In this document: positions 2,128-62,456 of the stretch, one piece after another | Layout: each line of letters begins with the position of its first letter | Position numbering within the stretch: the stretch's first letter is position 1 | Assembly (NCBI GenBank): GCA_016716265.1 | Contig: JADJWQ010000006.1 | Coordinates: 2,595,166-2,659,165, forward strand | Direction of reading: 5' to 3' | DNA length: 64,000 nucleotides | Source of the DNA: Planctomycetota bacterium | GTDB lineage: Bacteria > Planctomycetota > UBA1135 > UBA2386 | Notes under the pieces: generated by a model | What the model was told of the DNA's origin: nothing | Seen by the model: the letters and a program-made list of their open reading frames with translations, nothing else | Databases searched by the model: none | Program-made: the position numbers and the translations under genes

Positions 2128-3075
2128 TCACTCCGGCCCGCGCACCGACGCGCGCCGCGCCTCGTCGAGCCACTGGCGCACGCCGAGCGCATCGAGATCG
2201 CGGCGCAGCGCGTCGCGCTGCGCGGACGTCAGCGGTCGCAGCGGCGCGCGGACCGGACCGAGCTCGCAGCCGAGCATGCCGACCGTCGCCTTCGCGCTGC
2301 GCAGGTAGCCGTGCGCGACCAGCGCGTCGATCCACGCGATCGCACGCCGCTGCCAGCGCGCCGATTCCTCGTGCTCGCCACGCTCCTGTGCCGCGAGCGC
2401 GCAGCGGTACAACGGAGCCGCGAAGCCGTAGCTGCTGCCGACCGCGCCGCTGCAGCCGAGCGCCGCGGCCGCGAGCAGCGCCTCGTCGGTGCCGAACAGC
2501 ACGTCCTCGCCCGGCGCCGCCACGGCGAGGCAACGCTGCAGCTCGGCGAGGTCCGGGTTCGTGAACTTGACGCCGCCGAACGAGCGCAGGCGCTCGCGGC
2601 AGGCGACCATCACCTCGGCGGTCGGCAGCGCGACGCCGGTGAACGCCGGGATGTCGTAGTAGAGGAACGGCACGCGCGGCGCCGCCTCGGCGATCGCGGC
2701 GAGCCAGTCGACGAGCTCGTCGACGGTGCGGGGACGGAAGTAGCGGGGCGCGAGCGCGGCGATGCCGTCGGCACGGAGCTCGGCCGCGTGGGCCGCGAGC
2801 TGCCAGGCATCGCCCAGCGCATCGGCGCCGACGTGGATCCACAGCCCGAGGCCCTCGGCGCGGGCGGCCTTCGCCCACGCGGCGGCGAGGCGCTGCCGCT
2901 CGTCGCGGTCGAACGACGGCCCCTCGCCGGTGGTCCCCGCGACGAACACGCCGTCGACACCGAGCCCGCGCAGGAACCGCGCCTGCGCGGCGACGCGGTC
3001 CTCGGCCAGCGCGCCGTCGTCGCGGCAGGGCGTGTGCGGGGCGGCGATCAGCCGGAACGAAGCGCTCGGCACCAA
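2128..3075 (-). CDS. dihydrodipicolinate synthase / N-acetylneuraminate lyase family (class I aldolase) protein
   Basis: GTTGEG motif (VFVAGTTGEGPS), 315 aa, and the overall DapA/NAL pattern of a TIM-barrel aldolase. Confidence 0.8.
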   Translation of the reverse strand: MVPSASFRLIAAPHTPCRDDGALAEDRVAAQARFLRGLGVDGVFVAGTTGEGPSFDRDERQRLAAAWAKAARAEGLGLWIHVGADALGDAWQLAAHAAELRADGIAALAPRYFRPRTVDELVDWLAAIAEAAPRVPFLYYDIPAFTGVALPTAEVMVACRERLRSFGGVKFTNPDLAELQRCLAVAAPGEDVLFGTDEALLAAAALGCSGAVGSSYGFAAPLYRCALAAQERGEHEESARWQRRAIAWIDALVAHGYLRSAKATVGMLGCELGPVRAPLRPLTSAQRDALRRDLDALGVRQWLDEARRASVRGPE

Positions 3076-3383
3076 GGGTGTTCTCCTGCTGGGGAGCGCT
3101 CATGATCGGGTGCGCGTCGGCACTCGCAAGCTTCGGTACCCGAAAGGGCTGCGTCGGTCCGCGCGTGCCGGTTCGGGCGTCCCGGTCCGAGGAAACCGGC
3201 GCACGCCGGAACACCCGGGGCACCACGGCCGGCCGCATCCGTGGTAACAATGACGGATCAGGGAACCGGCGCCACCGCCCCCACGTTCCGATCGGCTCGC
3301 CGATCGGCGCGCGGAACTCTGGCTCCAGGGCCCCGTTGCCGGTCGCCTGCCCGACTCGAACCCGCAGCCCCTCTACGCTCGTC

Positions 3384-8962: not shown

Positions 8963-9035
8963 GGCCGCGCACTCTACTGGCCCGGACCCGCGGAGCGCTG
9001 CGGCCCTCGGCCTCCGCAACGGAAGAAGAGGTCCG

Positions 9036-17931: not shown

Positions 17932-18149
17932 CGTCGCACTCGTGGACTCGCCGACGTCCGCCGCGGCTCGCGACCACCGATCGCCAGCCGCGCGAGATGG
18001 TAGCGCGGTTCGGGCATCGGGAGAGGGCTCGCGTCCGGGCGGCCCGGTGGGGCGGGCCGGGATTCGAGGTCCGCGCCGGCTGCCCGGGTGTGCTGGTCTC
18101 CAGGTCGCGCGTAGGCGGCCGAGAACCACGAGTCACGAGGAGGATCCGC

Positions 18150-21619: not shown

Positions 21620-21752
21620 CAACGCATTCAGCCAGATCTCCGCGGCCCCGTTCGGATCGGCGCCGGTCGGCCGCGTGTCGAGCAGCAGCGCGTCGAGCCC
21701 GACCGGTCTCGCATTCGCCAACACCGGCCTCGTCATCGGCCTGCGCTGATGC
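21620..21752. repeat. copy B of the 133-bp direct repeat (orphan 3' gene fragment)
   Basis: Near-identical to 13941..14073. Upstream similarity extends weakly to about 21600 (NAFSQISAAPFGSAPVGRV versus NAFTQVFAAPYGPAPVGRV). No intact gene ends here. Confidence 0.85.
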
Positions 21753-21818
21753 CCACACGCCGCTGGCGCCGGCCGCGAGGCGGCGGGACGATGGCGGTCC
21801 CCGTCCCGCACGGCGCCC

Positions 21819-23057
21819 ATGCAGCGAGCCGATCCGCACCTCGACCGCCGCCACTTCCTCGGCCTGACGGCCGCCGCCGGTGCGGCAGCGCTCCGACCCG
21901 CACTGCGCGCAGGTGCCCGCGTGCAGGAGCCGCCGCCCCACCTGCGTGGCCATGCCGAGCTGTTCGCGCGCGACCCGCGCGCCGCAGCCGTCGCGTGGTT
22001 CGCTGAGGCGCGGTTCGGCCTGTTCATGCACTACGGGCTCTATGCGCTGCTCGGGCGCGGCGAGTGGGTGATGTTCCGGGAGCGGATCCCGGTCGAGCAG
22101 TATGCGAAGCTCCAGCAGCGCTTCGCGCCCGACGCGTTCGACGCCGACCGCATCACCGACCTCGCGCTACAGGCCGGCATGCGCTACGTGAACATGACGA
22201 GCCGCCACCACGACGGCTTCTGCCTGTTCCACTCGGCGATGACCGAGTTCACGAGCGTGCGTTGCCCGGCGCGGCGCGATCTCGTCGGCGAACTGGCGGA
22301 GCAATGCCAGCGCAAGGGCCTCGGCCTGTTCCTGTACTACAGCTACGCGCTCGACTGGCGCCACCCGTGGTACTACTCGCGCGCGCACAGCGACATCGCC
22401 CGGCCCGACTACGTCGAGCCCGATCCCGCCTACCGCTGGCAGCGCGACGCGGACTTCGCACGCTACATCGACTACGTGCACGCCCAGCTCCGCGAGCTGC
22501 TGACCGGCTACGGACCGCTCGCCGGCCTCTGGTTCGATCCGATCATGGGCTTCTATGCGCGCCCGGACCTGTTCCCGGTCACCGAGACCTACGCGCTGGT
22601 CCGCGCGCTGCAGCCGCATTGCCTGATCTCGTTCAAGCAGGGTGCGACCGGCACCGAGGACTTCGCGGCTCCGGAGCGCCACGGCCGGTCGCTCGCCGAC
22701 AACGTACAGCGCCGCTTCGGCGACCCGGAGCGCACGCGCGTCGCGGCCGCCGCCTGGGAGGCGAACCGCGACAAGCACAACGAGATCTGCGACACGCTGC
22801 AGCCGGGCGTGTGGGGTTACCGGGCGGCCGACGACGGCAATCACCGCGGCGCCGACGAGACCTGGACGATGCTGCGGCAGGCGGGCGCGGCGCGCTGCAA
22901 CCTGCTGCTGAACACCGGCCCGCTGCCCGACGGCTCGCTACACTCCGACGACGTCGCGACGCTGCACGCGGTCGGCCGACGGATCGCGGCCGAGGGCTAT
23001 CCGTCGGACCGAGCCGCCCGAGGACTCGATGCGAACCGATTCCGATCGAAGCCGTGA
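21819..23057 (+). CDS. alpha-L-fucosidase (glycoside hydrolase family 29), Tat-signal
   Basis: Twin-arginine-like DRRHFLGLTAAAGAAAL. GH29 N-terminal signature FGLFMHYGLYALLGRGEWVM. 412 aa. Confidence 0.85.
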   Translation: MQRADPHLDRRHFLGLTAAAGAAALRPALRAGARVQEPPPHLRGHAELFARDPRAAAVAWFAEARFGLFMHYGLYALLGRGEWVMFRERIPVEQYAKLQQRFAPDAFDADRITDLALQAGMRYVNMTSRHHDGFCLFHSAMTEFTSVRCPARRDLVGELAEQCQRKGLGLFLYYSYALDWRHPWYYSRAHSDIARPDYVEPDPAYRWQRDADFARYIDYVHAQLRELLTGYGPLAGLWFDPIMGFYARPDLFPVTETYALVRALQPHCLISFKQGATGTEDFAAPERHGRSLADNVQRRFGDPERTRVAAAAWEANRDKHNEICDTLQPGVWGYRAADDGNHRGADETWTMLRQAGAARCNLLLNTGPLPDGSLHSDDVATLHAVGRRIAAEGYPSDRAARGLDANRFRSKP

Positions 23058-31142: not shown

Positions 31143-32858
31143 ATGCCCGGAGCAGCCAGCCTGTCCCTGGCGACGTCGTGGATCGCAGCGCCGATCCTCG
31201 CCGCCGACACGGATCCGTTCGTGACGCTGATCATCGTCGCCGCGGTCGCGACGTTGTTCGGCTTCTTCGCATTGATCGTCAAGCGCTACAAGCGCTGCCC
31301 GTCGAACCGGATCCTCGTGATCTACGGCAAGGTGCAGGAGGGGCGCTCCGCGCGGTGTCTGCACGGTGGCGGTGCGTTCGTCTGGCCGCTGATCCAGGAC
31401 TACGAGTTCCTGTCGCTGGATCCGATGCAGATCGAGATTCCGCTGCGCGGCGCGCTGTCGATGGAGAACATCCGCGTCAACGTGCCGAGCGTGTTCACGG
31501 TCGCCATCGGCACCGAGCAGAGCGTCATGCAGAGCGCGGCAGAACGCCTGCTCGGGCTCGCCGCGAAGGACATCATGAAGCAGGCCGAGGACATCATCTT
31601 CGGCCAGCTCCGCCAGGTGATCGCCTCGATGGCGATCGAGGACATCAATCGCGACCGCGAGAAGTTCCTCGAGAGCATCCACTCCTCGCTCGCACCGGAG
31701 CTCGAGAAGATCGGCCTGATCCTGCTGAACGTCAACATCACCGACATCACGGACGAGTCGGGCTACATCGAGGCGATCGGCCGCAAGGCCGCCTCCGAGG
31801 CGATCCAGCAGGCCGAGATCGACGTCGCCGAGCAGACCAAGCGCGGTGCGATCGGCGTCGCCGAGGCCAATCGCGAGCAGATGGTGCAGGTCGCGCTGGC
31901 TGAGAAGCTGCGGTCGATCGGCATCAAGGAGGCGGAGCGCGACAAGCTCGTTCGACTCGCCGATCTGGACCGCGACACGCAGGTCGGCCAGCGCACGGCG
32001 GAGCTGCAGAAGGACGCGCAGATCGCCGACGCCGATCGCCACAAGCGCGTGCAGGTCGCCGAAGCCAATGCGTCCGCGGTCACCGGCGAGAACGAGGCGA
32101 AGAAGCAGATCGCCGACACCAACGCGGCGCTGCGCGTGCGCGAAGCCGAGGCGTTCCAGCTCGCCGAGACCAAGGCGCGCGAGGCGGACGCGGCGGTGCG
32201 CCGCGCCCAGTACGTCGCCGAGGCGAAGGCCGCCGAGGCGCTCGCCGGGAAGATCGAGGCCGAGAAGCGCGCCGAGCTCGAGGCGGTCGCCCGCGCCGAG
32301 AAGGCCAAGCTGATCGTCGACGCCGAGGCTGCCGCCGAGCGCGTGCGCATCGACGCGCTGGCGCGAGCCGCCGCGACGTTCGCTCAGCTCGAGGCCGAAG
32401 CGCGCGGTGAATTCGAGCGCCTCGCAAAGAAGGCCGAGGGTCTGCAGCGGATCGTCGAGGGCTGCGGCGGCGCACCCGAGGCGTTCCAGATGCTGATGCT
32501 CGAGCAGCTCCCGCGCCTCGCCGAGACCGCGGCGACCGCGATCTCCAACATCCGCTTCGACAAGGTCGTCGTCTGGGACGGCGGCATGGGCGGTACGGGC
32601 GGCAAGGGTGGCGCGGCCGGCTTCCTGCAGAGCCTCGCCGGCTCGCTGCCGCCGATGCTGCAGATGATGAAGGACGTCGGCGGCGTCGAGATGCCCGAGT
32701 TCCTCGGCAGGCTGGTCAGCACCGAGGCGTCCCCGCCCGACCAGGACGGCGACACCCCGAAGACCGGCGATGGCGGCTCCGCCAAGGCGACCCCCGACCC
32801 GAAGCGCACCCCGAAGCGCAAGCCCGATTCGCGCACGCCGGACGCCGGCGCGAGCTGA
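31143..32858 (+). CDS. flotillin-like SPFH/band-7 domain protein
   Basis: N-terminal TM (FVTLIIVAAVATLFGFFALIV), SPFH domain, and a long coiled-coil region with EA/AEA repeats (KAREADAAVRRAQYVAEAKAAEALAGKIEAEKRAELEA). 571 aa. Confidence 0.85.
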   Translation: MPGAASLSLATSWIAAPILAADTDPFVTLIIVAAVATLFGFFALIVKRYKRCPSNRILVIYGKVQEGRSARCLHGGGAFVWPLIQDYEFLSLDPMQIEIPLRGALSMENIRVNVPSVFTVAIGTEQSVMQSAAERLLGLAAKDIMKQAEDIIFGQLRQVIASMAIEDINRDREKFLESIHSSLAPELEKIGLILLNVNITDITDESGYIEAIGRKAASEAIQQAEIDVAEQTKRGAIGVAEANREQMVQVALAEKLRSIGIKEAERDKLVRLADLDRDTQVGQRTAELQKDAQIADADRHKRVQVAEANASAVTGENEAKKQIADTNAALRVREAEAFQLAETKAREADAAVRRAQYVAEAKAAEALAGKIEAEKRAELEAVARAEKAKLIVDAEAAAERVRIDALARAAATFAQLEAEARGEFERLAKKAEGLQRIVEGCGGAPEAFQMLMLEQLPRLAETAATAISNIRFDKVVVWDGGMGGTGGKGGAAGFLQSLAGSLPPMLQMMKDVGGVEMPEFLGRLVSTEASPPDQDGDTPKTGDGGSAKATPDPKRTPKRKPDSRTPDAGAS

Positions 32859-32894
32859 GCCGTCCCGACCCTCGAGTGAGTGCGAGCTCCGGCG

Positions 32895-33353
32895 ATGACC
32901 GACACCGACCCAGGCACACTGCACGGAATCCTGCACGGCTCGTGTGCGTGCGGTGCATCGCGCTTCGAGTGCGACGCGCCGCCGCGCTTCGTCTGCCATT
33001 GCCATTGCGGCAACTGCCGCAAGGCACACGGTGCCGCGTTCGTCACGTGGGCCGGCTTCCGCGACGAGCAGTTCCGGTGGACGAGCGAGTCGGCGCAGCT
33101 CGGCCGCTGGCTGACGGACACCGGCGCCACGCGGACGTTCTGCACGGTGTGCGGCACGACGATGCTCTATGCGTCACCCCGCTGGCCCGGCGAGGTGCAC
33201 GTCGCCGTCGCCGTGCTCGACGACGCCGAGGACCTGGTGCCGAAGCTGCACGTCTACGCCGATCGCGCGCCGCGCTGGTGTCCGATCACCGACGCACTCC
33301 CGCGCTACGGCGGCCCGACCGGCACCGAGCCACTCGTTCCGCCCTCTGCGTAG
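32895..33353 (+). CDS. GFA (glutathione-dependent formaldehyde-activating / CENP-V) family protein
   Basis: Cys-rich zinc-site pattern CACGASRFEC ... CHCHCGNCRKAHGAAF ... CTVCG. About 150 aa. Confidence 0.7.
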   Translation: MTDTDPGTLHGILHGSCACGASRFECDAPPRFVCHCHCGNCRKAHGAAFVTWAGFRDEQFRWTSESAQLGRWLTDTGATRTFCTVCGTTMLYASPRWPGEVHVAVAVLDDAEDLVPKLHVYADRAPRWCPITDALPRYGGPTGTEPLVPPSA

Positions 33354-33385: not shown

Positions 33386-35962
33386 GTGCGACCCGCTCCG
33401 AATTACCGGCGATCGCTGCTCGCCGCCGCCACGCTGCTCGCGCTCCCCGCCACGGCCCAGGCCCCGCTCGCGTGGCGGACGCTGCCCCCGCTTCCCGATC
33501 CGGTCGGTGTGGCAGGCGCGTTCGCCGGCGTCTCGGACGGCGCACTACTGGTCGCCGGCGGCGCCAACTTCCCGGGCGCGGCGCCGTGGGACGGTGGCCC
33601 GAAGATCTGGCACGATCGGGTCTGGATGCTGGCGGCACCCGACGACACCTGGCGGGAGGTCGGCAGGCTACCCGCGCCGCGCGCCTACGGCGCTTCGTTC
33701 GACACGCCGCAGGGCGTGCTGTGCGCCGGCGGCAGCGATGCGGGGTCGCATTCCACCGACTGCATGCTGCTGCGCGCGCGCGGCGGCGGCCTCGAGATCA
33801 CGCCCGCGGCACCGCTGCCGTTCCCGCTCGCGAACGCCGCGGGCGCCGTCGTCGGGAGCACCGCCTACGTCGTCGGTGGTAGCCGCGCGCCGACCGCGAC
33901 CACCGCGGCGGCGGAGCTGCTCGCGATCGACCTCGACCGGCTGGAGGCGGGGTGGCGGCAGCTCGAGCCGTTGCCGGGCGAAGGCCGCATCCTGCCGGTG
34001 GCCGCGGCGCAGGGCGGCACCTTGCTGGTGCTGTCGGGCGCTGCATTGAGCGCCGGTCCGGACGGCACACCGCAGCGCCGCTATCTGACCGAGGCCTGGA
34101 GCTACACGCCGGGTCGCGGCTGGCGGCGCCTTGCCGACCTGCCGCGCGCCGCGGTCGCGGCACCATCGCCCGGTCCGATCGTCGGCGCGAGCCACGTGCT
34201 CGTGCTCGGCGGCGACGACGGGAGCCGCGCAGGACAGCCGGCCGGCCCGGCGCACCCGGGCTTCCGCCGCGACGTGATCGCCTACCACACGATCACCGAC
34301 ACCTGGACGTCGCTCGCGACGATCCCTGCCCCGCTCGACGCAGCCGTCACCGCGCCGGTCGCGCGTTGGAACGACCGGTTCGTGATCGCCAGTGGCGAGA
34401 TCCGCCCGGGTGTGCGCACGCCGCAGGTCGCCACCGTCACCATCGAGAGCTCGCGCGCGTCGTTCGCGTGGCTCGACTGGCTGGTGGTCGTCGTCTACCT
34501 CGGCGGCATGGTCTGGATCGGCGTGTGGTTCATGCGCCGCGACGCCGCGGCGTCCACGGACGCCTGGTTCCGCGGCGGCCAGCGCGTTCCCGCCTGGGTC
34601 GCCGGATTGTCGATCTTCGCGACCATGCTCAGCGCGCTGACCTTCATGGGCATCCCGGCGCGCGCCTACCAGACCGATTGCTCGTGGTACCTCGGACAGC
34701 TGCCGCTGCTCGTCATCGTGCCACTCGTGGTGTTCTGCTACCTGCCGTTCTTCCGTCGCCTCGACGTGACATCGGCGTACGAGTACCTCGAGCGCCGCTT
34801 CGGGCTCGCCTGCAGGCTGTTCGCCTCGCTGTCGTTCATGCTGTTCCACATCGGCCGAATCGCGCTGGTGCTGTACCTGCCGGCGCTCGCCCTCGCGGCC
34901 GTGTCCGACATCGACGTCACCACATCGATCCTCGTCATCGGTGTTCTGTGCCTCGTCTACACTGTGCTCGGTGGCATCCAGGCCGTGATGTGGGCCGACG
35001 CAGTGCAGGCCGCCGTGCTGCTGCTCGGCGCCGGGCTGTGCGTCGTGCTCGCCGTCACCCGCGTCGACGGGGGGCTCGGCGGCGTCGTCGACATCGCGCT
35101 GCGCGACGACAAGCTGCTGCAGGGCGTCGATTGGACCTCGCTCGACATCCGCGACGGCACGGCGTCGGGGCTCGTGATCTTCGTCGCGTTCGGCTTCAAC
35201 TCGCTGGTCTCGTACACATCGAGCCAGGACGTCGTACAGCGCTACGTGACGACGCGAGATCTCCCCGCCGCACGGCGCTCGCTGTGGATCAACATGTGGA
35301 TGTCCCTGGCCGGCTCCGCGTTGTTCTTCGTGCTCGGCGTCGCGATCTACGCGTTCTACAAGATGCAGCCAGCCGAGCTCGACCCGGCGCTCACGGCGAC
35401 CGACTCGATCCTGCCGCACTTCATCGTCGCCGAGCTGCCGACCGGCATCGCCGGCCTCGTCATCGCGGCGATCTTCGCGGCATCGCAGTCGACGATCTCA
35501 TCGTCGCTCAACAGCATCGCGACGGCGTTCGTGACCGACATCGACAAGCGACTGTTGCGGCCGGCACGCGACGACCGCGCCTACCTGCGCAGCGCACAGG
35601 TCGTCGCGGTGGTCGTCGGGCTCGCTGCGATCGGCGTCGCGCTGTGGATGGCGACGGCGCGGATCGAGTCGGCGTTCAAGACGTTCAACACGCTGATCGG
35701 CCTGACCGCCGGCTCGCTCGGCGGTCTGTTCGCGCTCGGCGTGTTCACGCGCCGGGCCAACGCCTCCGGCGCATTGGCCGGTGCGCTGCTCGGGCTCGCG
35801 GTCGTCGTCGCGCTGGAGCTGTCGAACGCCGCGGTCACCGGGATCCTCTACGCGTTCGTCGGGCTCTCGACCTGCGTCGGTGCGGGGCTGCTCCTCAGCT
35901 TCGTGCTTCCCGGACGCGCCGATGCGAGCCTGTCGCTGCGCACCCGCGTCACGCGCCGCTGA
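33386..35962 (+). CDS. fusion protein: N-terminal Kelch/NanM-like beta-propeller (sialic acid mutarotase-like) + C-terminal sodium:solute symporter (SSS family) transporter
   Basis: GTG start at 33386 precedes signal peptide [18 protein letters not shown]. Six Kelch-like repeats ([52 protein letters not shown]). Then 13 TM helices with SSS features ([32 protein letters not shown]). 858 aa. The start codon is uncertain. Confidence 0.75.
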
Positions 35963-37559
35963 AGAAGTCGTTGCCCTTGTCGTCGACGACCAGGAACGCC
36001 GGGAAGTCCTCGACGTCGATCCGCCAGATCGCCTCCATCCCGAGCTCCGGGAACTCGACGACCTCGACCTTCTTGATGTTCTCCTGCGCGAGGATCGCCG
36101 CCGGACCACCGATCGAACCGAGGTAGAAGCCCCCGTGCTTCCTGCACGCGTCGGTGACCGCCTGCGAGCGATTGCCCTTCGCGAGCATCACGAAGCTGCC
36201 GCCGTGCTGCATGAACAGATCGACGTAGCTGTCCATGCGGCCGGCGGTCGTCGGCCCGAACGAGCCGGACGCGTAGCCGGCGGGCGTCTTCGCGGGTCCG
36301 GCGTAGTAGACGATGCTCTGCTTGAAGTAGTCGGGCAGCCCGCGCCCGGCGTCGATGCGCTCCTTCAGCTTCGCGTGCGCGATGTCGCGCGCGACGATCA
36401 ACGACCCGCTCAGCGAGAAGCGCGTCTTGATCGGGTACTTGGACAGCTCGGCACGGATCTCCTCCATCGGCCGCCGCAGGTCGAGTCGGACGACCTCGCC
36501 GCCGAGCTCCGCCTCGTCGATGTCCGGCAGGTATTGCGCCGGCTGCGTCTCGAGCTGCTCCAGAAACACGCCGTCGCGGGTGATCTTCGCCAGGATCTGC
36601 CGGTCTGCCGAGCACGACACGCCCATGCCGATCGGACAGGACGCGCCGTGGCGCGGTAGCCGCACGACGCGCACGTCGTGGCAGAAGTACTTGCCACCGA
36701 ACTGCGCCCCGATACCGAGCCGCTGCGTCATCTGGAGGACCTGCTTCTCGAGACCGGTGTCGCGGAACGCGCGGCCCAGCTCGTTACCGGTCGTCGGCAG
36801 CCCGTCCAGGTAGCGGGCACTGGCGAGCTTCACGGTCTTCAGCGTCGCTTCCGCCGACGTGCCGCCGATCACGATCGCGAGGTGGTAGGGCGGGCACGCC
36901 GCGGTGCCGAGCGAGCGCACCTTCTCCTCCAGGAAGGCCAGCAGCGAGCGTTCGTTGAGCACCGCGCGCGTCTGCTGGAACAGGAAGGTCTTGTTCGCGG
37001 AGCCGCCACCCTTCGTCATGAACAGGAAGCGGTACTCGCTGCCCTTCGTCGCGTACAGCTCGACCTGTGCCGGCAGGTTGGTGCCGGTGTTCTTCTCGTC
37101 GTAGGTCGTCAGCGCCGCCATCTGCGAATAGCGCAGATTGGTGCCGACGTAGGTGTCGAACACACCGCGCGACAGCGCCGCCTCGTCGTCGCCGTTCACC
37201 AGCACACGGTCGCCACGCTTGCCGATCACGATCGCGGTGCCGGTGTCCTGGCACGACGGCAGCACCATGGCAGCGGAGACGTTCGCGTTCTTCAGCATCT
37301 GCAATGCGACGAAGCGGTCGTTCGCCGATGCCTCCGGATCCTCGAGGATCGCACGGAGCTGCGCGAGGTGACCGGGCCGGAACAGGTGCGAGACGTCGCG
37401 GATCGCCTCGCTCGCGAGACGGGTCAGCACGGCCGGCTCGACCTCGAGGAACTCGACCCCCCCGTGCGTCGCGATGCGCACGCCGTCGGCCCCGAGGCTT
37501 CGATACGGCGTCGCGTCCGGCGCGGACTCGAACAGCGTCTGGTGCTGGAACGCGGTCAT
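35949..37559 (-). CDS. fumarate hydratase class I (Fe-S dependent)
   Basis: Start [11 protein letters not shown]. Conserved class I fumarase blocks ([13 protein letters not shown]; KGGGSANKT; [12 protein letters not shown]; TGDARD-like C-terminal domain with [17 protein letters not shown]). 536 aa. Confidence 0.9.
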
Positions 37560-37718
37560 GCGCGCACCGTACGCACGGCACCGCAGCGAAGCGAGCGCGG
37601 CGATTCCCGGGGTGCCACCGGCCTCGCCCTCACGAGCGGGGCGCCGCGCAGCTCCCGTCGTGGTCGGGATCCCGGAGCCGCCGCCGGCCTGCATGGCGGG
37701 CCGAGACCGCCCGGCGCG

Positions 37719-39206
37719 TCACTCCGGCTCCGACGCCAGTGCCCGGATCCGCTCCCAGGTGGCACGGACGTGACGCTCTTCCGTCGCCGCTGCGCCGATC
37801 GCCATGCGCAGCACGAAGCGCGGCGAGCCGGCGGGATCCGGCAGCGTCGTGTGGCTCAGGTAGGCGTGACCGGAGGCATTGAGACACTCGAGCAGCTCGC
37901 GGTTGCGGTCGTCGTCGCCGCGCAGCCGGAAACAGACCAGCGACAGCGTCGTCGGGGCCGCGATCTCGAAGCGCGCGTCGGCACGCACCAGCGACTCGAA
38001 CAGCCGCGCCAGCTCGACGTGGTGGCGGATGTGGGCACGGAGGCCATCCAGCCCGAAGTGGCGTAGGACGAGCCAGAGCTTCAGCGCGCGGAAGCGACGG
38101 CCGAGCGGAATCTGCCAGTCGCGGTAGTCGATGACGTCGCCGCTCTCGGTAGCACGATTGCGGAGGTACTCGGGCGTGACGCTCAGCGCGTCGACCAGGC
38201 TCGCCCGGTCCCGCGTCCAGAACGAGCTGCAGTCGAAGTTCGTCAGCAACCACTTGTGCGGATTGAAGCAGACCGAGTCTGCGTGCTCGACGCCGGTGAG
38301 CAGGTGCCGGTGCTCCGGGCAGATGCACGCCGCGCCCGCGAACGCGGCGTCGACGTGCAGCCAGCCACCCTGGCCGAAGAACGGCGTTCCGGACAGCGCT
38401 TCGGCGACCGGGCCGAGCGGGTCCATCGCGGTCGACGACGTCGTGCCGACCGTCGCACACACGAAGAACGGCGTGCGTCCCGCCGCCACGTCTGCGCGAA
38501 CGGCTGCGGCGAGCGCGGCAGGATCCATAGCCAACCTGGCATCGACGCCGACGAACCGGACGGTCTGCATGCCGTCCTCGTTGCAGCCGCCGGCGTCAGT
38601 GCACAAACCCGCGATCATCGCTGCCTTGACGATCGACGAGTGGCCCTGCGTCGATGTGTAGGCGACCAGCGCACGCGGGTCGCCTCCGGCAGCGCGCTGC
38701 AGGACCCGCCGGCGCGCCGCAACCATCGCGACCAGCGTCGACTCGCTCGCCGTGCCCTGGATGCAGCCACCGCCGGCCGACCCGCGGAACGTCGCCGGCA
38801 GCCCGATCGCCTCACCGAGCCAATCGAGCACGCGCGTCTCCAGCTCGGTCGCGGCCGGGCTCGTCGCCCACAGCATGCCTTGGATGCCGAGTCCGGCCGA
38901 GAGGAGCTCGCCGACGATCGCAGGCCCCGACGCGCTGCACGGGAAGTAGGCGTAGAAGTTCGGCGATTGCCAGTGGGTGACGCCCGGCAGGATCAGCCGG
39001 TCGAGATCGGCGAACACGGCGTCCCAGCTCTCGGCGCGATCGCCCGACGCAGCGAGCCCGCGCTCCGGCGCATGCTCGGGCAGCGCGCGCAGCAGCTCGC
39101 CGGGCGCCTGCTGCGACCGCACCGGGAACGACTCGACGCGCGCGAGATAGTCCGCGACCCAATCCACGGCGCGGTGGCCGAGGGCACGGAAGGTCTCGGG
39201 GTCCAT
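37719..39206 (-). CDS. pyridoxal-phosphate-dependent aromatic-L-amino-acid decarboxylase family (group II decarboxylase)
   Basis: NPHKW PLP-lysine motif (SVCFNPHKWLLTNFDCS). N-terminal METEFR-like stretch (MDPETFRALGHRAVDWVADYL). Conserved block HWQSPNFYAYFPCSAS. About 495 aa. Confidence 0.85.
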   Translation of the reverse strand: MDPETFRALGHRAVDWVADYLARVESFPVRSQQAPGELLRALPEHAPERGLAASGDRAESWDAVFADLDRLILPGVTHWQSPNFYAYFPCSASGPAIVGELLSAGLGIQGMLWATSPAATELETRVLDWLGEAIGLPATFRGSAGGGCIQGTASESTLVAMVAARRRVLQRAAGGDPRALVAYTSTQGHSSIVKAAMIAGLCTDAGGCNEDGMQTVRFVGVDARLAMDPAALAAAVRADVAAGRTPFFVCATVGTTSSTAMDPLGPVAEALSGTPFFGQGGWLHVDAAFAGAACICPEHRHLLTGVEHADSVCFNPHKWLLTNFDCSSFWTRDRASLVDALSVTPEYLRNRATESGDVIDYRDWQIPLGRRFRALKLWLVLRHFGLDGLRAHIRHHVELARLFESLVRADARFEIAAPTTLSLVCFRLRGDDDRNRELLECLNASGHAYLSHTTLPDPAGSPRFVLRMAIGAAATEERHVRATWERIRALASEPE

Positions 39207-39271
39207 GCGGCCGGGCGGCGGGCTCATGCCCCGTGAGTGTACCGACGGGGCCGGACGCTACGCTGCCCGAC

Positions 39272-41027
39272 ATGCGACCTTCGCACCGCCCGACTCCTCC
39301 CGCGAACCGGCGGAGCTTCGGTCCACGCCGGCGTCGCGCCGTCGCATCGCTGCTGATCGCCGTGGCGCAGGCTGGCGCGCAGGACCGGCCCCCGACGCTC
39401 CCGGCGGGACTGTTCGACGAGCTGGAGCTGCTGTATCCGGACACGCCGGTGGCGAGCGGCGCAGACACGCTCCACGTCGACGTTCCGCGCGGCAGCTTCG
39501 CGGCGGCACACGTGCTGATCGCGCCGGGCGCACCGGCCGACCAGCCGGCCGACGCGCTGCTCGAGGTCCGCTTGGACGTGACCGGCCTGCCGCTCGGAGC
39601 ACCCGTCCTGTATCGCCTCGTCAGCGTCCCGGTCGAGGAGAACACCGGCATCGAGAGCCGCACCGAGCGCTGGGACGGTCGCACCAATCCGTTCGTCGTG
39701 CGGCGCGCGCCGTTCCGAGTGTTCGAGGCGATGGCCCCCGCGACCTCGCCATTGCGAGGCGAGGACTCGACGCTCGCGCTACGCATCGAGCTGACGGTCC
39801 CGCCCGACAGCGACCCGGGCAGCCGATCGGTGTCCGTGACCTTGCAGCGCGGGAGCTCCCGCGCCGAGCTGGAGCTCGACGTGACCGTATACGCGTTCGT
39901 CGTACCGCCCACGGGCCGCGATACGACTCGCTACACGAACTGGTTCAGCCTCGGCCGGATCGCCACGGACCGTGGCGTCGAGCCGTGGAGCGAGCCGTTC
40001 TGGGACGCGCTCCAGAGCTGCGCGCGGCTGATGGCCCGCGGGCGGCAGAACACCTTCTGGGTGCCGTGGAGCGCGATCTTCGAACGTGGCGCGGACGGCC
40101 GCCCGCGCCTGCTCACCGAGCGATTGGCACGCTACGTCGCGACGTTCGAGACCGCCGGCCTGTGGTGGATCGAGGGCGCACCGTTCGCGCGACGGCCCGG
40201 CGGCGACTGGTCGCGGCCCGATCTCGAGCTGTCGATCGTCGACCTGCCCGCTGCGAGCGAGGCGGGCCGTGCCGCGCTCGCCGACATGGCGGGTCAGCTC
40301 GCTCGCATGATCGAGGCACGTGGCTGGCGTGACCGCTGGCTCCAGCACATTGCCGACGAGCCGACCGACACCAATGCCGTCGCATATCGCGAACTCGCAG
40401 ACGTGTTGCGCGAGCACCTGCCCGGCGTGCCGATCGTCGAGGCGACGATGTGTCGGACAGTGGCCGGCGCCGTCGACATCTGGTGCCCGCAGGTGCACCG
40501 GTTCCAGGCGCACCGGGACTTCTTCGCGGAGCGGCGCGCGCTCGGGGAGCGCGTGTGGGTCTACACCTGCCTCGTGCCCGGCGGACCCTGGCTCAACCGG
40601 CTCCTCGACCAGGAGCGGCTGCGGCCGGTGCTGATCGGCTGGGCGCTCGACCGCTTCGACCTCGACGGGTTCCTGCACTGGGGCTTCAACCACCAGCGCA
40701 CCGACCCGTTCGCGCAGAGCGTCGTGCCCCACGGCTCCGAGCCGAACAACCGGCTGCCGGCGGGCGACAGCCACATCGTCTTCCCGGGTCCGGGCGGCCC
40801 ATGGTCCGGCCAGCGCTTCGAGGCGCACCGCATCGGGCTTCGAGGACCGCGAGTGCCTGCGCGCACTGCGCGCGCGCGATCCTCGGCGGGCGGACGCGAT
40901 CGTCGGCTCGGTGCTGCGCGGCTTCGACGACTACACGACGAGCGTCGCCGACTACCGCGCGGCGCGCCGGAAGCTGCTGGAGGCAGCCAGCGAGGCCGGG
41001 CGCCGGGCCGGCGGGTGACCCCGCCCC
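39272..41027 (+). pseudogene. secreted (Tat-like signal) hypothetical protein, reading frame broken near 40816..40845
   Basis: Signal RRRRAVASLLIAVAQAGAQD. Frame 1 is protein-like up to ...WSGQRFE, then Arg-rich. The protein-like continuation GFEDRECLRALRARDPRRADAIVGSVLRGFDDYTTSVADYRAARRKLLEAASEAGRRAGG* is in the +1 frame and ends at the TGA at about 41025. Confidence 0.45.
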
Positions 41028-41094
41028 GCGGCCGCGCCGGTCTGGTAGCTTGTCCGCCCGAACCCGCCCGGGTGGGCGGGTCGACGCCCCCGTC

Positions 41095-42165
41095 ATGAAC
41101 GAACTCCTCCGCACCGCCGTCCGCGCGGTGGCCGTGGCACTGGCGTGTGCCGTGGCCGCACCCGCGCAGCGCCCGCAGCCGACGCCCGAAGAGCTGCAGA
41201 AGAAGTACGACGAGGAGCTCGCGCTCCCGTTCGTGCAGAAGGGCAACTGGATCGTCGACTACGACGAGGCCCGCGCCCGCGCCCGGCGGGAGGGCAAGCT
41301 GATCTTCGCCTACTTCTCACGCAGCTACGCCTATTGAGGGCCCTGCAAGGCCCTGGAGAGCCGTGCGCTCTCCGACGATCGCATCACCGCATTCACCGCC
41401 ACCGTCGTGCCGTTCCTGCACGTGACGACGCACATTCCGGGTAGGCCCTACGACGACCTGCTGCGGCAGAAGGGCTTCGGTGGCTTCCCGACGCTCTGCG
41501 TGATGGACGCAGACGGCGAGGTGCTGTACCAGCTGCCCGGAAGCGACCGCTCGATCGAGGGCTTCTACGCCGCGGTCGACCGCACCGAGCGCCTGCTGCG
41601 CGCCCGCAAGGCGGTCGAGACCGGCGAGCCCGGCGCACGCAACAAGCTCCTGCTGCTGTTGCTCGACATGGGACAGGTCGGCTTCGACGACGCGCTCGCG
41701 CAGGCGAAGGAGCTGACGCTCGATCCGGACGAGCAGATCGTCTTCCAGGTGCGCCTCGTCGAGACGCTGCGGCGGTTCCGCGGCGCGGACCTCGACGCGG
41801 CGATCGAGCGCGTCGACTGGCTGCCGGCGCCGCGGGCGCGCGCCGCGGAGATCCGCAGCGACACCCGCCTGATGGAAGACCTCGCCCCGCTGATGGCGCC
41901 GATCCGCGCTGTGCGACCGGGCGAGACGCCGGAGCCGCGGCCGTACGGAATCGCCTACGAGCTGTGGCAGCAGGGTCGCAAGCCGAGCCCGTCGTCGCCG
42001 GTCGAGATGCTGTATTGGGACGCCGTCCGGCGCGCGAGCGTGGAGCGGAAGGACCTCGCGGGGTTCGAGGACGCGGCAGCGGTGCTGCGCAAGCGGTTCG
42101 CCGACAACGCGGCCTACCTCGAAGGGCTGGACAAGGACCTCGCAACGCTCCGCGGCGGGCAATGA
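41095..42165 (+). CDS. secreted thioredoxin-fold protein with in-frame TGA (candidate selenocysteine, U-G-P-C redox motif)
   Basis: Signal peptide MNELLRTAVRAVAVALACAVAAPAQ. ORFs 40450..41337 and 41407..42165 are in the same frame and are separated only by the TGA at 41335..41337. Read-through gives ...KLIFAYFSRSYAY-U-GPCKALE...VVPFLHVTT...GFGGFPTLCVMDADGEVL, a canonical thioredoxin motif with the TGA at the first Cys position. The stop TGA overlaps the ATG of the downstream sigma factor (ATGA). Confidence 0.6.
41337..41373 (+). promoter_or_regulatory. SECIS-like hairpins immediately downstream of the in-frame UGA
   Basis: Hairpin 1, AGGGCC/CUGCAA/GGCCCU, spans 41337..41354. Hairpin 2, GGAGAGC/CGUGC/GCUCUCC, spans 41355..41373. 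Its apical loop lies about 25-30 nt after the UGA and contains GU, which fits the spacing of bacterial SECIS elements. Confidence 0.4.
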
Positions 42166-42726
42166 CCGACCGCAAGCCGGCGAGCCCTGATGTAAAAATC
42201 GTACGCGGTACCGATCTGAAGTCTGCGGGGCAGCTGTTGCCGGTGGTGTACGACGAGCTGCGGCGGCTCGCGCGGAAGCGGTTGCGTAGTGGCGGGGCGG
42301 TGACGCTCGATGCGACGGCGCTCGTGCACGAGGCATACGCCAGGCTGGTCGTCGACGATGGCGCGTCGTTCCGTGGGCGCGACCACTTCTTCGCTGCGGC
42401 GGCGCTCGCGATGCGGCACGTGCTGGTCGACTGCGCGCGGCGCCGGTCCCGGCTGCGGCACGGCGAGGGGCGGCGACCGGTGACGCTGTCGGGCCACGAC
42501 CTGACGGCCCGCGACATCGACCTGCTCGAGCTCGTGGCACTGGACGACGCATTGAAGAAGCTCGAGAAGCTCGCTGAGCGCAAGGCCAAGGTCGTCGAGC
42601 TACGCTTCTTCGGCGGGCTCTCCAATGCCGAGATCGCACGCGCACTCGACATCAGCGACGCGACCGTCGAGCGCGACTGGCAGTTCGCCCGCGCCTGGCT
42701 GTCGCGGGAGCTGGCCGGAGACCCGA

Positions 42727-42737
<11 letters not shown>
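42162..42737 (+). CDS. ECF-type sigma factor (Ser/Thr-kinase-associated ECF group)
   Basis: LPVVYDELRRLARKRL ... LDATALVHEAYARL ... LSNAEIARALDISDATVERDWQFARAWL are hallmarks of planctomycete-type ECF sigma factors. The ATG overlaps the upstream stop (ATGA). Confidence 0.8.
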
Positions 42738-45576
<2,839 letters not shown>

Positions 45577-48617: not shown

Positions 48618-50320
48618 CAGAACGACCCTCCGCTGTGGCAGGCCGAGTGACACGCGGAATGGCAGGCCGAGTGGCACGCCGAGTGACAGGCCGAGTGACA
48701 CGCTGAATGGCACGCCGAGTGGCAGGCCGAGTGGCACACGTTGACGGGCACCGAGTCGCCCAGGAACGCCTCGTACGACACGTGGTCGACCGCGACGTCG
48801 ATGCCACGGGCGAAGCGGTCGGGTCGCAGCGAACGGTCGTAGTCGGTGTAGCCGTACTGCCAGAAGTACCAGTGATGCCAGCCGTGGTGCCGGTCGATGT
48901 AACGACGCGCGTCGTCGTCGGCGCGCGCCTCGTGCCCTTCGCGTGCGCGCTCCTCCCACACCGGGCCGATCTGCCCGCGCCAGTACTGCTTGGTTGCCTC
49001 GATATCGCAGTCCCAGGCCTTCTTCTGCACGTTCTCGACGACCATGTCGAGCAGGTCCTCGAGCTCGGCCCGGGAGAACGCGCCGTCGTCCTCCGCAGCC
49101 TGGATCATCGCGATCTCGTAGTTCTCGAGCTTCGCGCGGTCGTTCGGGTGTCGCTCGAGCACGCGGACGAGCAAGGGCTCCTCCCGCACCACCTCGAGGA
49201 AGCCGGCCTGCAGCAGTCGCTGCAGCATGACGCTCAGGATGCGCCGGTACGGAATCTCGAGGAAGAACGCGACCTCGATCGGCGTCAGGTCGGTGCAGAC
49301 CTTGCCGGGCTTGCGGAAGGTCGACAGCACGAGCTTCGGCGGCGTCCAGTCGACGCTCGCCCAGCTCACGTCGTCGATCGTGGCCCGTGCGTGCCGCGTC
49401 TCGCGGTGCTTGCTCCGGACGAGGAGCACGAACGCCCCGACCACGATGCCGCCGAGCAGGGCGGCCAGCGCGCGCGTGGTCGCGCGATCTTCGACCGGTT
49501 CACGCGTCGGCGGGCGCGGCGGGCGCGGCGCAGCGGGCTGGATCGGTCCGCGGACCGGTGCACGGGCCGGCGCCGGGCCGGCCGCGCCGGCGGCGCGCGT
49601 CCACGTCGCGGGCTCGAACACCGACGCCCGCACGTACTGCTGGATGTCGAACCGCGCGTCCTTGGCGAGGTTCTCCTGGTGCAGGAGCACCTCGAAACGA
49701 CCGTCTTCCGCCGTTCGGTAGTCGATCCGGTAGCGGTCGTTCATGAACTTCTCGGTGCGGAAGTGCAGCCCGTCGAGGAACGCGGGAGACCGCGGATCGC
49801 CGATCACCTCGGTCGGATAGCGCACGCGCACCGTGGCGTGCTGTAGCGCGTGATCCCAGGTCGACGGCGCCCAGTGGAACACCGCCAGCTCGGTGCCATC
49901 CGCGTCGGTCGTCCGCGCCAGGAAGCCGTGCGCCGCGAAGTCGGTCGCGAAGCGGAACCGGAAGATCACCTCGCCCTCGCGCACTCCGGCGCCGCCGGCC
50001 AGCTCGATGGTCTGCCGGCCGTTCCGATTACCCCGGATCAGGCGGTACTCGAGGCCGGAGGTCGTCGTCGCGCGCCCGAACCCGTCGTCCCAAACCGGCG
50101 CCAGCGAGTCGATCTGCGGCCCCGCGAACCAGAACCCGTGCAGCTCGCCGGTCGCCGCGTAGCACACGGTGTAGGTGACCGACGAGCGGCCGTCGGTGCC
50201 GACGTCGACGTCGACCTCGCACCACACCGGATGGCCCTGCTGCGCCGGCAGCCGCCCGCCGGAAAGGCCGAGAGCGACGATGGCGATGCCAGCCCGGAGA
50301 ACGCTGCCCGAGGACCCCAT
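48617..50320 (-). CDS. bitopic membrane protein (signal peptide, periplasmic domain, Pro-rich linker, TM, cytoplasmic domain) ending in a (Cys-His-Ser-Ala)x9 tail
   Basis: Signal MGSSGSVLRAGIAIVALGLSG. TM ALAALLGGIVVGAFVLLV. The C-terminus is VNV-CHSACHSACHSACHSACHSACHSACHSACHSACHS-GGSF*. Architecture resembles DUF2207-type proteins, but with a Cys/His repeat tail in place of a Gly-rich tail. Confidence 0.65.
   Translation of the reverse strand: MGSSGSVLRAGIAIVALGLSGGRLPAQQGHPVWCEVDVDVGTDGRSSVTYTVCYAATGELHGFWFAGPQIDSLAPVWDDGFGRATTTSGLEYRLIRGNRNGRQTIELAGGAGVREGEVIFRFRFATDFAAHGFLARTTDADGTELAVFHWAPSTWDHALQHATVRVRYPTEVIGDPRSPAFLDGLHFRTEKFMNDRYRIDYRTAEDGRFEVLLHQENLAKDARFDIQQYVRASVFEPATWTRAAGAAGPAPARAPVRGPIQPAAPRPPRPPTREPVEDRATTRALAALLGGIVVGAFVLLVRSKHRETRHARATIDDVSWASVDWTPPKLVLSTFRKPGKVCTDLTPIEVAFFLEIPYRRILSVMLQRLLQAGFLEVVREEPLLVRVLERHPNDRAKLENYEIAMIQAAEDDGAFSRAELEDLLDMVVENVQKKAWDCDIEATKQYWRGQIGPVWEERAREGHEARADDDARRYIDRHHGWHHWYFWQYGYTDYDRSLRPDRFARGIDVAVDHVSYEAFLGDSVPVNVCHSACHSACHSACHSACHSACHSACHSACHSACHSGGSF
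48632..48739. repeat. 12-bp tandem repeat x9 encoding (CHSA)n
   Basis: On the minus strand, units follow the pattern TGY CAY TCN/AGC GCS. The units differ at synonymous third positions (tgc/tgt, cac/cat, tcg/tca/tcc/agc, gcc/gcg). Confidence 0.9.
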
Positions 50321-50371
50321 GCGGCGAAGAACCCCGCCGCGCCGCCCGTGTTTCTCGAGGTTCGGCCGGCT

Positions 50372-52600: not shown

Positions 52601-52864
52601 GGCAGCTTCGTCGAGGGAGTCGAGACCGCGCTCCCGCCGCGCGCCGGGACCGGGCCGAGCCAACGGCTCCGACCGGTCCCATCAGCGCTACGTGCGGTCG
52701 CGCGAGGTCCCAGCGCGGCAGCGCCGCCGATCCGTCATCCCGTCCGCAAGTTTTTCCTCCTGACGACCGCCGACCGGGCCGGGTCGCCGCGAGGCCCTCA
52801 CCTCCCACGATCCCGTGAGGGTGGCGCGACCCGGAGCGCGTGTGCCCCGGCGGAGCACGTCGAG

Positions 52865-57713: not shown

Positions 57714-57777
57714 CGACAGACGGAGCGCTCGAGGATCGACTGCGTGACGCCGGATCGACAGGCCGCGGGACGGCCGA

Positions 57778-60530: not shown

Positions 60531-60586
60531 CGGAGGACTCGTGGATGGGAAGGGACGGTGGGACGGCGGGAGGCCCCGCACGGGGG

Positions 60587-60892
60587 TCAGCGGATCGGCC
60601 GCAGCACGAGCTTGCGGGTGTTGTTGGAGACCCGAGTCACTTCACCGAGCGTGCCACGCCAGGTCTCGAAGCCCGGCTTGCTGACCTCGATCTCCTCGTC
60701 CTCGTCGATGTCGTAGTTCAGGTCGGCTGGCGTCCGCAGCGACAGGTTGCGCTCGACGAGAAACAGCGCGGCCCCGGGCGGATCGGTCTCGAGTCGCGAG
60801 ATCGGCGGTGACGCCTGGCTGTTCGTGGAGTTGCTGTAGCTGCAGCCGGTGAGGAGCAGCAGTGCAGAGGACAGGACGGCGAGAGTTCTCAT
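60587..60892 (-). CDS. small lipoprotein (about 100 aa)
   Basis: MRTLAVLSSALLLLTGCS lipobox. Its start lies 18 nt downstream of the stop of the 488-aa lipoprotein gene. Confidence 0.5.
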   Translation of the reverse strand: MRTLAVLSSALLLLTGCSYSNSTNSQASPPISRLETDPPGAALFLVERNLSLRTPADLNYDIDEDEEIEVSKPGFETWRGTLGEVTRVSNNTRKLVLRPIR

Positions 60893-62376: not shown

Positions 62377-62456
62377 GATTCTCGGGGTTCCTGTGGGCTC
62401 GCCCCCGGTGGCGGCGCGAGCCGGGGTTCAGAGACGCGCAGCCGGCCGTCCGCCGC

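Follow-up and report, generated by a model that had tools for sequence, protein, structure and literature searches.

The forward strand of a planctomycete contig carries a gene that joins, in a single polypeptide, a beta-propeller resembling a sialic acid mutarotase and a membrane domain resembling a sialic acid transporter. The questions raised by this locus are whether the two halves truly belong to one protein, what each of them is related to, and which sugar acid the joined protein would handle. The gene was analysed within a window of 64,000 nucleotides, which is the whole stretch of DNA considered here. The favoured reading, to which a probability of roughly 0.78 is assigned, is that the gene is of the SiaF type and encodes an inner-membrane, Na+-coupled ST5/SSS sialic acid symporter with an N-terminal periplasmic propeller of the permuted NanM mutarotase type. 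The architecture of the protein, its homology, the conservation of its functional residues and the linkage of its orthologs to nan genes carry this reading.

One reading frame for a propeller and a symporter

The open reading frame runs uninterrupted from a GTG start codon to a TGA stop codon (Table 1). Its product is 100% identical to an entry from a 4.12-Mb contig of a Planctomycetes MAG at NCBI, which is annotated as "sodium/solute symporter [Planctomycetes bacterium]". In the AlphaFold2 model of the whole chain (pLDDT 89.9, pTM 0.89), about 24 strands arranged in six blades (residues 28-353) are followed by 13 long helices, and the pTM over the entire two-domain chain suggests that propeller and transporter have a defined mutual arrangement. 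At the N-terminus, inspection revealed a basic n-region, then a hydrophobic core (residues 11-29) and an A-x-A (AQA) site; the model of this region has a pLDDT below 60. An RR motif lies on the cytoplasmic side of TM0 and, together with the leader, fits a 13-helix domain with its N-terminus outside. Domain search, model and inspection therefore agree with the original prediction of a secreted propeller and a 13-TM SSS transporter in one polypeptide. Scans for promoters and terminators, Rfam families and tRNAs found no features.

Table 1. Positions of the fusion gene, its domains and sites, and two further genes in the window.
Feature	Position	Strand	Basis or remark
siaF-type gene	33386..35962	+	single 858-aa ORF: signal peptide, NanM-like propeller and SSS symporter
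Predicted Sec-type signal peptide, residues 1-26 (...PATAQA/PLAW)	33386..33463	+	sequence inspection
Six-bladed Kelch/NanM-type beta-propeller, residues ~27-353	33464..34444	+	Pfam, PDB alignment, model
Putative catalytic motif G337-E338-I-R-P341-G-V-R344-T345	34394..34420	+	aligns to E. coli NanM G208-E209...R215-T216
13-helix sodium:solute symporter domain, residues ~358-845	34457..35920	+	SSF/sss matches, PmSiaT alignment, Foldseek, model
Unwound TM1 segment A412-T-M414-L415-S416-A-L-T419	34619..34642	+	equivalent to PmSiaT A56, T58, L59, S60, T63
R491 codon, PmSiaT Arg135 equivalent	34856..34858	+	alignment
Candidate N-acetylneuraminate lyase (NanA-like, DHDPS family)	2128..3099	-	Pfam, NCBIfam, PDB matches; 30 kb from fusion
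GH29 alpha-L-fucosidase	21750-23054	+	10 kb from fusion

A protein of this kind might be produced artificially, when a nanM gene and an adjacent siaT gene are run together through an error in sequencing or assembly, or through a missed stop codon. The sole hint in this direction is a locus (L031) with an unfused SSS gene that is 65% identical to residues 356-851 of the fusion, which means that unfused relatives of the symporter half exist; nothing else of the kind was found. Against an artefact, the identical 858-aa protein is encoded on an independent Logan short-read contig of 4.2 kb from SRR11674018, and a short, conserved junction connects the last strand of the propeller with TM0. Homologous fusions, which the original prediction had proposed to look for in related taxa, were counted in at least 597 species-level genomes, and hundreds of them, from different phyla and projects, are full-length (query residues ~10-850) and read in a single frame. 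The two-domain architecture recurs in over 100 protein clusters with identities of 52-66%, and both Pfam domains were detected in 119 of the best 120 homologous clusters. An assembly join or missed stop was thus rejected and can practically be dismissed.

The two domains and their conserved residues

The Pfam family NANM (PF24996) matches residues ~28-350 above its gathering score (E = 2.9e-37), in three stretches. The sole significant sequence relative of the propeller in the PDB is the E. coli mutarotase YjhT/NanM (2UVK; E = 4e-14), and the alignment runs in permuted order, query residues 28-132, 139-228 and 293-349 corresponding to NanM residues 229-341, 3-81 and 166-220, respectively. Judged by this alignment, the blade order of the propeller is a cyclic permutation of that in E. 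coli NanM. The kinship with NanM and the permuted mutarotases, as first proposed, is borne out. In Foldseek, the N-terminal half matches six-bladed Kelch domains with a TM score of ~0.8. The curated mutarotase models were all matched below their cut-offs: NCBIfam mutarot_permut (TIGR03548) with 127.9 bits against 243.2, its best stretch being collinear (query 40-227 on profile positions 2-188 of 323) but also sub-threshold; NCBIfam YjhT (TIGR03547) with 112.1 bits against 256.35, in three permuted stretches; and PRK14131 with 124 bits against 416. These scores, together with the permuted stretches, indicate at the sequence level a NanM homolog that stands outside the canonical YjhT family.

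The putative catalytic motif is strongly conserved: G337, E338, P341 and R344 are invariant in a 44-sequence alignment of the fusion family, and across species genomes from several phyla the glutamate is kept in 84/84 and the arginine in 82/83. Their counterparts E209 and R215 are presumably the NanM residues picked out by mutagenesis, which Severi and co-workers reportedly performed on both in 2008. The mutagenesis of NanM placed the catalytic site at the central cavity of the propeller.

The transporter half is matched by Pfam SSF (PF00474) at residues 394-803 (E = 3.8e-49) and by NCBIfam sss with 241.5 bits against a cut-off of 184. Its best solved relative is the Na+/sialic acid symporter PmSiaT (5NV9; E = 4e-112, 42% identity over 473 aa), and the second-best solved SSS relative is SMVT (E = 3e-51). 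Foldseek aligned the C-terminal half to SiaT (5NVA) with a TM score of 0.94 on the target, an rmsd of 2.3 Å and 40% identity. By sequence, the symporter half is therefore placed with the sialic acid transporters and not with other SSS subfamilies, and the relation to SiaT pointed out at first is borne out.

The likeness to PmSiaT covers the whole 13-helix domain and extends to the binding, Na+ and gate residues. In PmSiaT, the unwound TM1 segment with A56, T58, L59, S60 and T63 provides backbone ligands of Na2 and ligands of the Neu5Ac carboxylate, Arg135 forms a salt bridge to that carboxylate, and mutation of S60, T63, Q82 or R135 abolishes transport (PMC5931594). All four of these transport-essential residues are kept in the fusion, and the position of R491 is occupied by arginine in 120/120 close homologs and in 84/84 species genomes. 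The Na2 site (S342, with S343 replaced by Thr), the Na3 site (D182, S345, S346) and the inner-gate R260 are likewise kept (PmSiaT numbering). The pocket differs from that of PmSiaT by T58M, F78W, N247S and Q250S. The first of these is systematic, with methionine at this position in 117 of 120 close homologs; in PmSiaT, T58 contacts the anomeric OH and is the least conserved of the binding residues and non-essential (PMC5931594).

Neighbourhood of the gene and of its orthologs

A GFA-family gene and a convergent class I fumarase gene flank the fusion gene, and a flotillin gene is also among its immediate neighbours. Scavenging of host glycans or sialoglycans had been suggested from a DapA/NAL-family lyase and a GH29 fucosidase in the same window; both genes are present, but as genomic context they were overstated, since the lyase gene lies 30 kb and the fucosidase gene 10 kb from the fusion gene, and neither forms an operon with it. 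The lyase gene matches Pfam DHDPS (E = 1.2e-39), its best NCBIfam models are two NanA equivalogs, both below cut-off, and its best PDB relatives are the N-acetylneuraminate lyase 6H4E (8e-53), followed by 5AFD and 6ARH. The product is also 45-48% identical to those of the DHDPS genes located after siaF in the nan clusters of Verrucomicrobia. An assignment as DapA was rejected on these matches and identities. The motifs GTTGE, YYDIP (not followed by Arg), VKFT and GTDE can be read in the sequence, and we take them to discriminate NAL from DapA. The lyase is accordingly listed as a candidate downstream pathway enzyme without linkage to the fusion gene. Pfam scans of ~35 ORFs across the 64 kb, and tblastn with Verrucomicrobia nan-cluster queries, found no epimerase, sialidase or SASA esterase, and a local nan operon was rejected. 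Neither a second copy of the fusion nor an unfused NanM or SSS paralog was found within the 64 kb.

The orthologs have different surroundings. In Haloferula and Akkermansiaceae, genes for proteins with 62-63% identity are found in clusters of GntR, GH33 sialidase, siaF, DHDPS (NanA), GlcNAc-2-epimerase and SASA esterase, with a 4-bp overlap of siaF and nanA. The closest homologs thus sit in sialic acid clusters, and the link to sugar-acid transport withstood this check. Taking 86 fusion loci together, a nan gene lies within 8 kb at 53. The pocket signature of the present protein (G81, Q82, F243, R135, S60, T63) resembles SiaT more closely than those of the other subgroups do, and of the 21 loci that share it, 16 are nan-linked; for the Q58 subgroup the figure is just 6 of 21. 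From the wide variation of pocket signatures and the low linkage of the Q58 subgroup, substrate specificity has probably diversified within the fusion family.

Proposed action, alternatives and known systems

In the proposed mechanism, the signal peptide would direct the propeller across the inner membrane. Only ~8 residues separate its last strand from TM0, so that it would rest immediately against the periplasmic side of the transporter. Retaining sialidases would release alpha-Neu5Ac, and the propeller, through its conserved Glu338/Arg344 site, would speed its conversion into the beta-anomer, the form in which SiaT has been seen to bind Neu5Ac. The symporter may then hold the carboxylate of Neu5Ac by Ser416, Thr419 and Arg491 and the glycerol tail by Gln438, and import the sugar with Na+ at the conserved Na2 and Na3 sites. 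Inside the cell, Neu5Ac would presumably be cleaved by a NanA-type lyase, for which the distant gene in the window is a candidate. Mutarotase activity, substrate, Na+ coupling and cleavage of the signal peptide are here predicted from homology and conserved residues.

The propeller shares with E. coli NanM the six-bladed Kelch fold, the predicted periplasmic location, the GE(x)2PG(x)RT motif and a place upstream of an inner-membrane sialic acid transporter. NanM is a soluble homodimer, whereas the domain is tethered here and its blade order is permuted, which sets the strand with Glu338 and Arg344 ~15-20 residues before TM0. The active-site face could for this reason lie above the outward-open vestibule, and we infer that the beta-anomer might be handed over directly from propeller to transporter. 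The near-invariant T58M replacement could be a co-adaptation for accepting substrate delivered in this way. It is nevertheless rather doubtful that the fusion achieves genuine channelling, beyond mere co-localisation of its two activities. In a weaker variant of this idea, subgroups such as the Q58 group in Acidobacteriota might have been re-targeted to non-sialic substrates.

The same architecture might also serve a related 2-keto-3-deoxy or nonulosonic acid (KDN, Neu5Gc, O-acetylated forms, or bacterial or algal nonulosonates) instead of Neu5Ac. Such a substrate would fit an environmental planctomycete without obvious host association, in which the fusion gene is unlinked to nan genes and the pocket residues on the side of the N-acetyl group and the hydration layer depart from PmSiaT (the four changes listed above); the variable signatures and weak nan linkage among other fusions point the same way. 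However, the signature of this very protein is the one closest to SiaT, loci that share it mostly lie beside GH33 sialidase, NanA and GlcNAc-2-epimerase genes, and a NanA-like lyase is encoded within the window, so that another substrate is considered unlikely.

A further question is whether the propeller is catalytic at all, or is a tethered capture or lectin-like domain, or a regulatory lid, that raises the local concentration of sialic acid at the mouth of the transporter, much as a binding protein would. Kelch propellers often serve as binding modules, the majority of the Foldseek matches are Kelch domains that bind proteins, the scores fall below the curated mutarotase cut-offs, and no fused propeller has been assayed so far (PMC8461474). 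But the only significant relative of solved structure is a mutarotase, and the Glu/Arg motif equivalent to NanM E209/R215 is essentially invariant across 84 genomes of several phyla, which fits conserved chemistry better than mere binding. A non-catalytic propeller is accordingly regarded as very improbable, and a mutarotase tethered to a sialic acid symporter is the reading retained.

Although the fusion was at first described as unusual, it corresponds to a published clade. Severi et al. (2021; Microb Genom, PMC8461474) gave the name SiaF to ST5/SSS sialic acid transporters with an N-terminal permuted NanM domain, reported them from Bacteroidetes, Planctomycetes and Verrucomicrobia, and represented them by the Alistipes timonensis protein A0A1H4AP10. 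The feeding of the beta-anomer straight into the transporter was already proposed for SiaF in that study, which graded the family as not characterised and its substrate as "Neu5Ac(?)", and which noted that the fusions lack the dimerisation hairpin of NanM. No experimental work on any SiaF protein was found in the literature searched, including that after 2021. The present protein shares with SiaF the order of leader peptide, permuted NanM propeller (CPM) and 13-TMH SSS domain with N-out/C-in topology, the phyla (Planctomycetes and Verrucomicrobia), the orthologs in nan clusters and the proposed role in supplying beta-Neu5Ac. It differs in being solitary, while the published tree took only transporters adjoining a nan gene. 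The Bacteroidetes fusions retrieved are 38-43% identical to it, and the assignment to SiaF was made by architecture and pairwise identities. The architecture, its taxonomic range and its rationale were thus published in 2021, and the gene is one more planctomycete example, a solitary one.

The findings are of modest value, as supporting data on whether tethering a mutarotase speeds the uptake of freshly released alpha-sialic acid. Bearing on this question are the spread of the fusion over the species counted above, including Acidobacteriota, a phylum absent from the list of Severi et al. (PMC8461474), the essentially invariant transport residues and Glu/Arg motif, the systematic replacement of Thr58 and the pocket subgroups with very different nan linkage. 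When a SiaF protein is first studied biochemically, constructs could be chosen with these points in mind.

Among the known systems, PmSiaT differs from the present protein in having neither an N-terminal propeller nor a signal peptide, in addition to the residue replacements given above. Another N-terminal, leader-bearing fusion of NanM to a transporter is NanM–NanZ (ST4, MFS) of Akkermansia muciniphila and A. glycaniphila (PMC8461474), which represents an independent case, and in which the transporter is an MFS protein with an extra N-terminal helix and not an SSS protein.

Architecture and homology of the fusion protein

A domain search of the siaF-type gene with Pfam, as the original prediction had advised, found both halves of the protein: NANM (PF24996, N-acetylneuraminate epimerase domain) on the N-terminal ~350 residues (E = 2.9e-37) and SSF (PF00474) on residues 394-803 (E = 3.8e-49). 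The 26 N-terminal residues, ahead of PLAW, resemble a Sec signal peptide and have a predicted hydrophobic core at residues 11-29. The AlphaFold2 model, for which 44 homologs served as input, is confident (pLDDT 89.9, pTM 0.89); in it residues 28-353 form about 24 strands in six blades, followed by a junction of ~8 residues and 13 long helices. Foldseek aligns the N-terminal half with six-bladed Kelch domains (TM ~0.8) and the C-terminal half with SiaT 5NVA (TM 0.94, rmsd 2.3 Å, 40% identity). The single open reading frame, the domain matches and the model bear out the prediction of a Kelch/NanM-like propeller and a 13-TM SSS transporter in one polypeptide.

The sole significant solved sequence relative of the propeller is E. 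coli YjhT/NanM (2UVK, E = 4e-14). Its matching segments come in permuted order (residues 28-132 correspond to NanM 229-341, 139-228 to 3-81 and 293-349 to 166-220), and the propeller is therefore of the cyclically permuted type, in line with the predicted kinship to NanM and permuted mutarotases. In NCBIfam, the cyclically permuted mutarotase and YjhT subfamily models both match below threshold, so by sequence comparison the domain is a NanM homolog short of these curated cut-offs; the transporter half scores above the cut-off of the sss model (241.5 bits). The propeller motif G337-E338-x-x-P341-x-x-R344, aligned to NanM G208-E209...R215, is invariant across 44 homologs, and the species genomes keep its Glu in 84/84 and its Arg in 82/83. 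The counterparts of E338 and R344 are E209 and R215, which we take to be the NanM catalytic residues defined by mutagenesis. According to a review, mutagenesis placed the NanM catalytic site at the central cavity of the propeller. The cyclic permutation brings the Glu338/Arg344 motif onto the last blade, only ~15-20 residues ahead of the first symporter helix, TM0 (window 34394-34480), a closeness of which no mention was found in the available part of the SiaF paper (PMC8461474).

As proposed, the transporter half is closely related to Proteus mirabilis SiaT (42% identity over 473 residues, E = 4e-112). The SiaT numbering was rebuilt from the alignment and verified at 19 published positions, and all residues whose mutation abolishes SiaT transport (PMC5931594) are conserved in the fusion. 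Conserved are Ser60 (S416 in the fusion), Thr63 (T419), Gln82 (Q438), Arg135 (R491), Ser342 of the Na2 site (S702), and Asp182 (D538) and Ser345/Ser346 (S705/S706) of the Na3 site. Four pocket positions differ: Thr58 is replaced by Met, Phe78 by Trp, Asn247 by Ser and Gln250 by Ser. Thr58 contacts the anomeric hydroxyl and is the least conserved SiaT ligand, and the T58A substitution doubled the uptake rate (PMC5931594). The equivalent position is Met in 117/120 close homologs of the fusion.

Assignment to SiaF and proposed function

The fusion agrees in architecture and topology, and likewise in transporter subfamily and binding residues, with SiaF, a clade that Severi et al. (2021; PMC8461474) defined among ST5 transporters, and we assign it there on these features. 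The available text of that paper describes SiaF as not characterised and gives the substrate as 'Neu5Ac(?)'; a literature search found no later experimental work on SiaF. In the best-supported reading, the fusion is a symporter that takes up sialic acid with Na+ and has a periplasmic mutarotase tethered to it (probability about 0.78). At the entrance to the permease, the mutarotase would turn alpha-Neu5Ac released by sialidases into the beta-anomer, the form that is transported. The analysis demonstrates the architecture, the homology, the conservation of residues and the context of the orthologs, while catalysis, substrate, ion coupling and channelling are inferred from them.

Set beside both the four pocket changes and the intact essential residues, a related but different acidic sugar as the substrate is unlikely. 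Set beside the sub-threshold subfamily matches and the invariant Glu/Arg motif, a propeller acting as a non-catalytic capture domain is more improbable still. An artefact is scarcely conceivable: an assembly join or a missed stop is ruled out by the identical protein in independent assemblies and by fused relatives across species. An NCBI Planctomycetes MAG (4.12-Mb contig) has an annotated protein identical to this one, and an independent Logan assembly contig encodes it too, with the same GFA-family gene upstream there. Homologous fusions in related taxa are also present, since 119/120 best protein clusters carry both domains (52-66% identity, 95-100% coverage) and relatives are encoded in at least 597 genomes of a set with one genome for each species; nearly all of the best 80 span query residues ~10-850 in one frame. 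The first interpretation, a symporter with its own mutarotase, is essentially correct, but the architecture is already published and common rather than unusual. The remaining interest lies in the channelling question and in the pocket-signature subgroups.

Gene neighbourhoods in the window and in relatives

Features of the window around the fusion gene
Feature	Position	Strand	Remarks
siaF-type fusion gene	33386..35962	+	858 codons, GTG start, TGA stop, uninterrupted frame
Flotillin/SPFH gene	31143-32855		upstream of fusion
GFA-family gene	32880-33350		directly upstream of fusion
Class I fumarase	35952-37694	-	convergent, downstream of fusion
DHDPS-family gene	2131-3099	-	
3-keto-disaccharide hydrolase + cytochrome c domains	5426-9367	-	1314-aa protein
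GH29 alpha-L-fucosidase	21750-23054	+	
GH123-like hydrolase	38981-41095	+	
GDSL/SGNH esterase	56016-57788	-	591 aa; possible sialate O-acetylesterase candidate
Large Ser/Thr protein kinase	14947-18132	-	
Large Ser/Thr protein kinase	42556-45573	+	
Long high-GC3 ORF	32-1444	+	
Long high-GC3 ORF	48620-50371	-	
Long high-GC3 ORF	51740-55963	+	
Long high-GC3 ORF	58911-60641	-	
Long high-GC3 ORF	60913-62427	-	

The 3' ends of the fusion and the fumarase gene overlap by 14 bp (35949-35962), and a PLP decarboxylase gene lies beyond the fumarase. A scan for promoter-like or terminator-like sites, including a hairpin at these 3' ends, found none. Among proteins of solved structure, N-acetylneuraminate lyases match the DHDPS-family gene best (6H4E, 8e-53), and the lyases adjoining siaF in Verrucomicrobia share 45-48% identity with it. 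GlcNAc-2-epimerase, GH33 sialidase and SASA esterase were searched for in the 64 kb and are not present. The lyase and fucosidase, put forward as a scavenging context, are both in the window, and this context is real but dispersed, with no operon including the fusion, because the glycan genes are scattered and the epimerase, GH33 and SASA genes absent. The GH29, GH123-like, GDSL/SGNH and 3-keto-disaccharide hydrolase genes are likewise unclustered. One of the two kinases carries PD40/WD40-like repeats and the other a long TPR array; for the long high-GC3 ORFs (up to 1408 aa), neither Pfam nor NCBIfam gives a match even at E 0.1.

Closest homologs unrelated to sugar-acid transport would have contradicted the prediction; instead, orthologs of 62-63% identity sit in textbook sialic acid catabolism (nan) clusters of Haloferula helveola, an Akkermansiaceae MAG and a third Verrucomicrobia genome. 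These clusters begin with a GntR regulator, followed in order by GH33 sialidase, (unknowns), siaF, DHDPS(NanA), GlcNAc-2-epimerase and (SASA esterase). The siaF stop and nanA start overlap by 4 bp (L003:10532-10535, L004:10544-10547, L006:10520-10523), and nanA likewise overlaps the epimerase gene, an arrangement that suggests that the transporter and the catabolic enzymes are translationally coupled. In 53/86 loci, one or more of the genes for NanA, epimerase, GH33 and SASA lie within 8 kb, and 44/86 have the lyase. Orthologs are solitary, as in the window, in a Planctomycetaceae MAG and at loci L005 and L007.

At one locus, an unfused 517-aa SSS gene (L031:7944-9497, +) is 65% identical to fusion residues 356-851, and no propeller was matched anywhere in the 11-kb locus. 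This gene may represent a natural form that either lost the propeller domain or predates the fusion. Its contig was assigned to an Akkermansia muciniphila bin, probably wrongly in view of its GC of 65.7%.

Pocket-signature subgroups

The fusions of loci L002-L087 were classed by ten SiaT-equivalent positions (58, 60, 63, 78, 81, 82, 135, 243, 247 and 250) and form distinct subgroups. S60 and R135 are universal, and positions 58, 78, 81, 82 and 243 vary. The fusion of the window belongs to the group that most resembles SiaT (M58, G81, Q82, F243), in which 16/21 loci are linked to nan genes, against 6/21 in the Q58 group. The latter consists mostly of Acidobacteriota Bryobacterales (L038, L041-L043, L055 and others) with some Planctomycetota; Acidobacteriota are absent from the SiaF phyla given in the accessible text of the 2021 paper (PMC8461474). 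The Q58 subgroup may have a different substrate.
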